In this document: piece after piece, positions 58,176 through 59,232 of the stretch
Layout: the number at the start of each line of letters is the position of its first letter
Position numbering within the stretch: the first letter of the stretch is position 1
Source of the DNA: a virus
Reading direction: 5' to 3' (one strand)
DNA: 64,000 nucleotides
IMG/VR virus record: IMGVR_UViG_3300044611_002466
Location: 64,001 to 128,000 of that record
Program-made: the position numbers and the translations under genes
The notes under the pieces: model-generated
What the model was told of the DNA's origin: nothing
Seen by the model: only the letters and a program-made list of their open reading frames with translations
Database searches by the model: none

Positions 58176-58512
58176 CGAGCATCCTCAGGTAGTTCTCCCA
58201 GGTCACGCCTTCCGGCGTCTCCACATCGGCCTTGAACTTGAGGAAGGGCAGGGGCCCCTCGAAGTGGGCGAACTCGTCGAGCCGCGGCGGTTCGACGAGC
58301 GCCCTCATGCTCTCCACCTCCTTCGGCCCGAGGAGCGCGTTGTGACTCGAGTAGAAGGAGTGCATGTAGGGAGTCGACAAGGCCGTGTTCCAGTCCCAGA
58401 CACGACGTGCGGCCGCCGCCGGCGTGTCCCAGCCCAGGAGGACCAGGAACGCGACGGGGCTGACCGCGAGGCGGAAGCCCTCCCGACCCCAGTACCAGTG
58501 CGCCGACCTCAC
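58168..58512 (-). CDS. Hypothetical protein
   Basis: GTGA overlap. Confidence 0.55.
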   Translation of the reverse strand: MRSAHWYWGREGFRLAVSPVAFLVLLGWDTPAAAARRVWDWNTALSTPYMHSFYSSHNALLGPKEVESMRALVEPPRLDEFAHFEGPLPFLKFKADVETPEGVTWENYLRMLGG

Positions 58513-58901
58513 AGGCCCCCCTGCTGCCCGGCCGGCAGCTTCAGCTTGGGAGCGCGGCACCCTTCGTTGCCGTAGCCCTGGAGGTTGAAGCCGGCGGCGC
58601 ACTCCACCGCGACCGAGCCGATCGCACCATCGCCCTGCGGGTAGGCGATCGTGCAGGAGACGTAGCCGTCGTTGTCGGTGTCCCACTTCGTACAGGTCAC
58701 CGACGGAGAGGGGTACTTCAACTTCTGGGCGTGCTCCAGAGCCTGACGCTCCGCCTCCACCTGGACGTCGTCGCCCTTGACCGCCTTGAGCCCCTGGCAG
58801 CTCCCGCCGAGGATGAAGAGGAAGACGAGGATGATGACGGCGACGATCGCAACTTCGATGACCGTGGCGCCCTTTCGGGCGCGGATGCGGATGGAGTTCA
58901 T
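58509..58901 (-). CDS. Secreted protein with type IV prepilin-like N-terminus
   Basis: Basic leader MNSIRIRARKG|ATVIEV, then a hydrophobic helix; 4 Cys and DTDNDG in the globular part. Confidence 0.6.
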   Translation of the reverse strand: MNSIRIRARKGATVIEVAIVAVIILVFLFILGGSCQGLKAVKGDDVQVEAERQALEHAQKLKYPSPSVTCTKWDTDNDGYVSCTIAYPQGDGAIGSVAVECAAGFNLQGYGNEGCRAPKLKLPAGQQGGL

Positions 58902-59068
58902 GGGGTTCCTGTGGGTGCGCCACTGAGAAGGGCGACAGCGGTGTCGAGGAGACGGAAGACGAGGACGAAGAGAAAGAAGGCGCTCACGCCAGCGCCGGAG
59001 ACCACCATGATGAGGGACTCGATCTCATTCCAGCGCGTGATCTCGGTCTTGTTCGTGGTGTTGTTCAT
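58898..59068 (-). CDS. Small membrane protein
   Basis: One long hydrophobic helix; ATGA overlaps. Confidence 0.55.
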   Translation of the reverse strand: MNNTTNKTEITRWNEIESLIMVVSGAGVSAFFLFVLVFRLLDTAVALLSGAPTGTP

Positions 59069-59232
59069 GGGATCCCTGTCAGGGTGCTGAGGAGAAGGAA
59101 GCCGGCAACGAAGCCGAGGGCGGCCACGACGATGACACCTGCGCCCGTGATGAAGGCCGCCAGGATGAACGACCGCATGGCCGACAGAAGCTCCTCCGCG
59201 TAGCCAGGCTCGTCCGAGGTGTCTTCGCTCAC
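59065..59232 (-). CDS. Small membrane protein
   Basis: FILAAFITGAGVIVVAALGFVAGFLLL; GTGA overlap. Confidence 0.55.
   Translation of the reverse strand: MSEDTSDEPGYAEELLSAMRSFILAAFITGAGVIVVAALGFVAGFLLLSTLTGIP

Follow-up and report, generated by a model that had tools for sequence, protein, structure and literature searches.

A prepilin-type membrane protein family of large phages with a four-cysteine, DxDxDGY-bearing head that may engage the type IV pilus or type II secretion machinery of the host

Introduction

Type IV pili and type II secretion systems (T2SS) are major receptors for phages as well as organs of virulence and motility. The closest described phage-encoded counterparts of their subunits are P-FimU of F10-like Pseudomonas prophages, which becomes part of the pilus in Pseudomonas and blocks phages that bind the pilus tip (Sztanko et al., 2026, Cell Rep, PMC12952977), and the PilA-like genes, some of them truncated to 60 residues, found in virulent phages (PMC12952977). 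The first proof that a phage-made pilin enters the host pilus and excludes rivals came only in 2026, and the pilins concerned are near copies of the host's own that are carried by Pseudomonas prophages. Here we describe a gene, termed gene D, at 58509..58901 on the minus strand of a 64,000-nucleotide (nt) stretch of viral DNA, hereafter the window, which comprises bases 64001-128000 of the IMG/VR virus record IMGVR_UViG_3300044611_002466 (188,230 bp, rated complete; G+C of the window ~65%). A preliminary description, made from the letters of the sequence, regarded its product as a type IV prepilin-like protein encoded in a cluster of small membrane proteins, and suggested that it might enter or poison host pili or the T2SS, or titrate the prepilin peptidase PilD. 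Our comparisons place it in a large, unnamed family, apparently found mostly in large uncultured phages, whose members typically join a pilin-type N-terminal helix to a head domain of their own. We consider below whether this helix is likely to bring the protein into the pilus machinery of the host.

Gene D encodes a divergent member of a prepilin-type family

The translation of this open reading frame (ORF) is exactly the protein quoted in the preliminary description. Its G+C content at third codon positions (GC3) is 0.91 as against 0.46 for an overlapping frame of 251 residues on the same bases; hence, gene D is the true coding frame and a real gene. All the features originally pointed out in the protein, namely the basic leader ending in Gly (-1), the Glu at +5, the hydrophobic helix, four cysteines and an aspartate loop, are indeed present, and the columns of the Gly and the Glu are conserved in the family alignment. 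Residues 17-34 are free of charge, and beyond Cys35, which closes the membrane helix, the protein has further cysteines at positions 70, 83, 101 and 115.

Since a word-index protein search with the gene D protein returned that protein alone, its relatives were found only by an exhaustive HMMER search, which detected 359 of them (counted as sequence clusters) at E<=1e-3, of which 28 reach E<=1e-10; most are 100-125 residues long. Neither the gene D protein nor a canonical member of the family (P0029) had a tblastn match in 50,697 GenBank phage records. In the literature on phage-encoded pilins in jumbo or huge phages we found no description of the family or of its head domain.

Most of the relatives carry clearer pilin signatures than gene D does. 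When 40 of them were aligned (A1), the majority showed the string G/FTLIEL...AIIG, with the slash marking the predicted cleavage site; 31 of the 40 match PF07963 (N_methyl; best 4.3e-10) and 26 match TIGR02532. The column of Gly11 is G in all 36 non-gap rows and that of Glu16 is E in 35 of the 40 rows, and the proteins that keep Gly-1 and Glu+5 are only 30-50% identical to each other. The residue at +1, the one that is N-methylated in type IV pilins, among 88 prepilin-type relatives is Phe in 56, Ala in 9, Met in 6, Leu in 5, and Val and Tyr in 4 each, so that the substitution of Ala for Phe in gene D, which had been noted when the protein was first called prepilin-like, has precedents in a family dominated by the G/FTLIE form. 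A profile of the family matches solved pilins, namely Geobacter PilA-N (1.4e-6), a type IV pilin PilA chain (2.8e-6) and Thermus PilA5 (6.8e-4). These matches run through the N-terminal helix only, and the NCBIfam pilin matches of the relatives are likewise consistent with the N-terminus only. Sequence comparison thus strongly supports the view that common descent, rather than chance, accounts for the class III (prepilin-type) signal at the N-terminus of the gene D protein. Since its homology to FimU or PilA does not extend past the helix, and since on its own it fails the curated pilin models, the protein itself is best filed as a divergent member of a prepilin-type family rather than as a pilin.

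The one Pfam match of the gene D protein itself raises the question of which kind of pilin it resembles most. It is to Flp_Fap (residues 9-31, E 0.0046, 17.2 bits), and the G/ATVIEV string is nearer to the Flp/TadE pattern (G/xxxxE-Y/F) than to G/FTLIE, with Ala at +1 and Thr at +2 being typical of Flp. The protein would then be a mimic processed by a TadV/CpaA-type peptidase, with a Tad (or Kil-like) pilus as its target in place of a type IVa pilus or the T2SS. However, the score falls far under the cut-off of 32.2 bits, TadE_N finds no match in the protein, and the defining aromatic (Tyr/Phe) after the Glu is replaced by Val following Glu16. Moreover, a single member out of the 40 matches Flp_Fap as opposed to the 31 that match N_methyl, and Flp pilins have no globular head. 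We accordingly regard a Flp/Tad affinity as very unlikely.

Six members of A1 (P0002, P0005, P0011, P0013, P0016 and P0040) are extended by 30-80 residues ahead of the pilin motif and share a LIFG-x-IPNVF-like hydrophobic stretch. This reflects either an unusually long conserved leader or start calls that are systematically over-extended.

The head is a compact four-cysteine domain with an EF-hand-like loop

No Pfam or NCBIfam model covers the head domain of ~80 residues, which makes this DxDxDGY-bearing, four-cysteine domain a candidate for a new Pfam family. Its conservation pattern is sharp: C70, D74, G79, Y80, C83, C101, G114 and C115 are invariant in A1, and D76 and D78 (at least 90%), S82 and E100 are nearly so. 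A domain-only alignment of 27 sequences (A2) gave much the same picture. The earlier idea of a calcium-binding-like loop fits these data, as the DxDxDGY loop is the most conserved element of the family. In addition, the sole PDB sequence matches of the domain-only profile, though insignificant (E>=0.2), are to EF-hand loops, and no pilin was matched. The segment D-x-D-x-D-G-Y-(V/I)-S follows a helix and fits positions 1, 3, 5, 6, 8 and 9 of an EF-loop, all conserved, but position 12 is not acidic; calcium binding by this loop is a reasonable guess.

For structure prediction we used AlphaFold2 (AF2) with an alignment; the single-sequence model was poor, with a predicted local distance difference test (pLDDT) score of 62.5. 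The alignment-based model has a mean pLDDT of 86.9, with values of 91-95 over residues 11-30 and 90-97 for most of the head domain. It comprises a helix (14-38), a low-confidence linker, a second helix (43-60) and then 3-4 strands, an order that, in the model, matches the alpha1-N, alpha1-C and sheet of small pilins. Foldseek searches of PDB and BFVD with the model returned nothing at E<=0.001. From the four invariant cysteines, the lack of a His cluster and the basic leader we infer an oxidized, extracytoplasmic head, with the gene D protein predicted to be a bitopic protein of the inner membrane in the N-in/C-out orientation.

The same head is found on interchangeable anchors

We then compared the anchors in 135 relatives with the core motif: ~94 are prepilin-type (the anchor of ~70% of members), ~19 are lipoprotein signals and ~22 are plain transmembrane (TM) helices, some of the last evidently being truncated prepilin forms. 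The anchor types are mixed across a tree built from the head domain, with 33 changes as against 38.7 for shuffled labels; being based on 83 columns, this tree is poorly resolved and too short for reliable counts of switches, and its well-supported branches force only 1-2 of them. Gene D falls in a subclade with P0002, P0003, P0005 and P0006, in which 17 of the 18 rows are prepilin-type and the exception looks truncated at its start. Within this subclade the Cys at the end of the helix is variable and the pilin motif is kept.

These observations bear on the lipoprotein signal at LGGSC that the preliminary description had offered as its chief alternative. In that case, residues 1-34 would be a long signal peptide, Lgt and LspA would lipidate the protein and cut it at Cys35, leaving a periplasmic domain with a lipid anchor as the mature product, and the pilin look would be discarded or vestigial. 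A relaxed PROSITE-type lipobox does fit at Cys35 of gene D, and the ~19 relatives of this type are clear lipoproteins with a short signal peptide and the +1 Cys at the equivalent place. Further, the membrane helix ends in a Cys in 63 of the 88 prepilin-type relatives, and in 35 of these the context fits the relaxed lipobox. Yet the strict form, [LVI][ASTVI][GAS]C, does not match the G-G-S-C of gene D because of the Gly at -3, and its nearest relatives either lack the Cys (P0002 and P0008) or have it in a non-lipobox context with Asn/Lys at -2 (P0003, P0005 and P0007), in each case with the prepilin motif intact. A charged Glu in the hydrophobic region and a length of 34 residues are both atypical of signals for signal peptidase II, and a signal that is merely discarded would not be expected to keep Gly-1 and Glu+5. 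Lipidation of the gene D protein at Cys35 is kept as an alternative, though an unlikely one.

Many members of the family may carry two nested signals on one helix, with a prepilin-peptidase site towards the cytoplasm and a lipobox-like Cys towards the periplasm; gene D is perhaps among them. It is conceivable, if a distinct long shot, that dual processing would then yield two products from one gene: a free "mini-pilin" helix, which would go into the pilus or T2SS platform of the host or poison it, and a lipid-anchored, calcium-binding periplasmic domain with a separate target. We know of no described phage or bacterial protein with such a dual-signal design.

The interspersed anchors also suggest a simpler scenario, in which the pilin-like helix is just one of several swappable holders that keep the calcium-loop domain on the periplasmic side of the inner membrane and never enters a filament. 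Such an effector would act on a periplasmic or envelope target other than the pilus; like Imm and Sp of T4, it might stop superinfecting phages by blocking their DNA entry or their virion lysozyme, or else it might mask a receptor. Both the exchange of anchors and the Gly-rich linker behind the helix fit a periplasmic effector that is held at the membrane in this manner. On the other hand, a mere tether needs neither a buried charge nor a Gly at -1, and we consider this scenario possible though doubtful.

Gene D travels singly and probably depends on host machinery

In IMG/VR we found 18 loci of the family on contigs of 22-478 kb, six of which exceed 190 kb, and the Atlas clusters nearest to the gene D protein are 50-94% viral where the taxa are known. 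Around P0004, P0005, P0007 and P0150, small ORFs of unknown function all run in one direction, as is typical of large phages, and one of these four contexts encodes a T4_Y16D domain. Outside this pattern, one Atlas cluster with 136 members is mostly cyanobacterial, and a contig of Byssovorax has a copy near a VgrG-like gene.

Gene D is the fourth of six genes (A-F) that form a cassette on the minus strand, coupled through start/stop overlaps. No match to genes A, B, C, E or F was obtained by tblastn against 33 other loci of the family, and clustering of the ORFs from 34 loci (the window included) yielded no recurrent partner gene. The cluster of small membrane proteins noted at the outset is therefore real locally but is not a conserved module, as none of the five neighboring genes recurs in the 33 other loci, and we dropped the notion of a conserved "membrane protein module" since no neighbor recurs across the 34. 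The absence of a conserved neighbor suggests that gene D acts alone or with host factors. In moving singly between what appear to be unrelated phage contexts, it resembles accessory genes that have their target in the host.

Profile searches of the phage's own genome for Peptidase_A24, a second TIGR02532 protein and a T2SSE ATPase found none of them, the sole T2SSE signal being the P-loop of an SNF2 helicase. A phage that lacks these components must rely on the machinery of its host. Judging from its sequence, this phage is related to cultured phages at a large distance only: the best match of the SNF2 helicase is to Salmonella phage Arash at 30% identity, and megablast of 57000-61000 against the 50,697 GenBank phage records gave no match. 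The window has no tRNAs, and no close cultured relative points to a host.

Several individual loci show features of their own. Two phage-like and otherwise unrelated contigs (L005:11040-11921 and L038:1697-2572) have a Band_7 (SPFH/prohibitin) gene within two genes of the pilin-like gene. Tandem paralogues occur on two contigs from bacterial metagenome-assembled genomes (MAGs), at L026:5248-6315 and at L029:5773-6600; at the latter, a copy with a plain TM helix is followed directly by one whose pilin N-terminus is canonical and has a Pro22-like FIPHF. On the contigs L029, L031 and L032, labelled Uhrbacteria, Gammaproteobacteria and "bacterium", respectively, the homologue lies beside SecDF in all three, with SecA seen in L031, and a gene resembling a type IV secretion coupling protein is near. 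Because differently labelled contigs share one neighborhood, the binning or labelling of these three may be wrong.

Weighing the case for engagement of the host pilus or T2SS

We place at about one half the probability that the gene D protein is a host-processed pilin-like protein that engages or interferes with host type IV pili or the T2SS. In this scheme, it would be expressed during infection from the phage's own CATAAG-type promoter (see below) and inserted via the host Sec/signal recognition particle route with its head in the periplasm. A host prepilin peptidase would cut the leader after Gly11, and the mature helix with its Glu5 would dock, as a foreign minor (pseudo)pilin, into the assembly platform of a type IV pilus or T2SS, should the host have one. 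Two disulfides would form among the four invariant cysteines, and the small, disulfide-locked and probably calcium-binding head would cap, alter or block the filament. The likely pay-off would be the exclusion of pilus-dependent competitor phages, or the sparing of progeny from adsorption to doomed cells. Entry into or poisoning of the pilus or T2SS, as well as titration of PilD, as first proposed, are plausible, P-FimU being a recent and direct precedent.

The strongest argument for such engagement, drawn from the alignments, is the evolutionary retention of Gly-1 and Glu+5. We favor it over a mere tether because the Gly and the buried Glu have been kept across deep divergence even though they would be costly or neutral in a tether.

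A number of observations weigh on the other side. The gene D protein itself has no match to PF07963 (E<=1) or TIGR02532 (E<=10), and the Gly14 and Pro22 of pilins are absent from it. In canonical pilins alpha1 is one continuous helix, whereas both the alignment and the AF2 model place a variable Gly-rich linker between the membrane helix and the head of this family. The head domain also rides on the ~19 lipoprotein signals and ~22 plain TM helices interspersed on the tree, which means that incorporation into a pilus cannot be essential to its function in every member and weakens the claim of pilus or T2SS poisoning. Three contigs from bacterial MAGs, as opposed to phages, have a homologue beside SecA and/or SecDF. 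The swapping of anchors together with the Gly-rich linker constitutes the strongest counter-argument.

The cassette around gene D and its putative promoter

The coordinates of the cassette and of the parts of the gene D protein are collected in Table 1. The preliminary description had placed gene D and two single-helix ORFs directly upstream of it in an operon driven by a CATAAG motif. Both ORFs are borne out as genes (B and C) by their GC3 values, and they show no detectable similarity or paralogy when compared with each other. A CATAAG does head the cassette; the operon, however, extends to six coupled genes rather than three, and the promoter role of the motif is inferred. All 19 copies of CATAAG in the window are on the minus strand, within 21400-62669, where ~6.1 would be expected in the window on both strands together, and nine aligned copies show the extended form CGTCATAAG upstream of start codons. 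The motif is thus probably a promoter element of the phage's own transcription system.

Table 1. Positions in the window of the cassette genes, the parts of the gene D protein and the adjacent CATAAG motifs
Feature	Position	Strand	Description
CATAAG, extended form CGTCATAAG	59539..59544	-	putative promoter element of the phage at the head of the cassette, 41 nt ahead of gene A
Gene A, first of the cassette	59229..59498	-	89 residues, CxxC; GGAGG ribosome-binding site and ATG; GC3 0.85 for the longer frame
Gene B	59065..59232	-	55 residues, acidic N-terminus and single hydrophobic helix; GC3 0.82; GTGA overlaps the stop of gene A
Gene C	58898..59068	-	56 residues, single hydrophobic helix; GC3 0.79; ATGA overlaps at both ends
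Gene D	58509..58901	-	130-residue prepilin-type membrane protein; GC3 0.91; 359 relatives; alignment A1
Gene D, leader, residues 1-11	58869..58901	-	four basic residues, ends in Gly11; predicted prepilin-peptidase site after Gly11
Gene D, membrane helix, residues 12-34 (alpha1-N equivalent)	58800..58868	-	Ala12 (+1), Glu16 (+5); 23-residue hydrophobic helix
Gene D, Cys35, end of membrane helix	58797..58799	-	context LGGSC; possible lipobox Cys
Gene D, extracytoplasmic domain, residues 43-125	58527..58775	-	predicted helix packed on a 3-4-stranded sheet; four invariant Cys
Gene D, DTDNDGY loop, residues 74-80	58662..58682	-	EF-hand-like DxDxDG motif
Gene E	58168..58512	-	114 residues; GTG start overlaps the stop of gene D (GTGA); orphan
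Gene F, last of the cassette	57924..58175	-	83 residues, Cys-rich; GC3 0.85; start 8 nt before the stop of gene E
Next CATAAG	57856..57861	-	behind gene F; heads the following cassette (denV-like gene)

The genes flanking gene D in the cassette have no Pfam or PHROG family match. This includes gene A, which is without a family; the longer frame at gene E had no Pfam match and gene E no relatives in a word-index search, and gene F had no PHROG match. The products of genes A and F are both small, Cys-rich proteins (CxxC and CxC...CxxC patterns) on the same strand, without a family, that may be zinc-binding regulators.

The position of two small single-helix proteins directly upstream of gene D might also be read as part of a lysis cassette, with genes B, C and D as a set of holin/antiholin and spanin-like components. 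Inner-membrane and lipoprotein anchors both occur in the family, as they do among spanin components, and an o-spanin is found among the insignificant BFVD matches (E 0.21). Nevertheless, these neighbors accompany the gene in none of the 33 other loci, and no lysis-related or other Pfam or PHROG family is seen among the flanking cassette genes. Searches with three lysin families (Phage_lysozyme, Amidase_2 and SLT) found no match anywhere in the phage genome, and the idea could therefore not be anchored. To our knowledge, spanins have neither class III signals nor DxDxDG loops, and we regard a role in lysis as highly improbable.

Three further genes of this phage encode recognizable domains. Just upstream of the cassette, a gene for 146 residues (59540-59980, minus strand) has weak matches to PF02481 (DprA-like; E 0.19) and phrog_289 ("GTP-binding domain"; E 4e-5), and may encode a Rossmann-like nucleotide-binding protein. 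On the other side, adjoining the cassette and directly behind its own CATAAG, a gene for 161 residues (57350-57835, minus strand) encodes a denV-like protein with the Pyr_excise domain of pyrimidine dimer DNA glycosylases (E 1.4e-19). Next to the SNF2 helicase gene, a protein of 686 residues (4147-6207, plus strand) has an InPase domain (inorganic pyrophosphatase, PF18823; E 1.9e-38).

Comparison with known systems

Like type IV pilins and T2SS pseudopilins, the gene D protein has a basic leader, Gly-1, Glu+5 and a helix of ~20 residues, followed in the predicted structure by a helix on an antiparallel sheet, with disulfides expected. Unlike them, it fails the pilin models, has Ala at +1 and no Gly14 or Pro22, and has its alpha1 broken by a Gly-rich linker, and no similarity to the head of any pilin was detectable in its own.

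A further parallel is with calcium-binding DxDxDG loops of the EF-hand type (Rigden and Galperin, 2004). The gene D loop resembles them in following a helix and in fitting the six positions listed above, and differs from them in having neither an acidic position 12 nor an exiting helix. Membrane-tethered periplasmic immunity and exclusion proteins, such as the colicin M immunity protein Cmi and the Imm and Sp proteins of T4, are a further close kind. The natural swaps of anchors in the family amount to a ready-made experiment on what the class III signal contributes.

The closest parallel is with P-FimU and P-PilA. As with these, gene D is a phage gene with a pilin-type N-terminus and without pilus machinery of its own, so that the peptidase and assembly apparatus of the host would be needed, and, as with P-FimU, the proposed pay-off lies in competition between phages. 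P-FimU and P-PilA are recognizable, full-length homologues of host FimU or PilA, whereas gene D is pilin-like in its N-terminal helix only and has a separate four-cysteine DxDxDGY head that also occurs on non-pilin anchors. The family appears to point to a much larger and older group than the prophage copies of host pilins, in which a pilin-type front end is joined to a head unlike any pilin head found. If its pilin-type members do engage the pilus machinery of their hosts, tampering with this machinery would be common practice among large virulent phages and not a mere curiosity of prophages.

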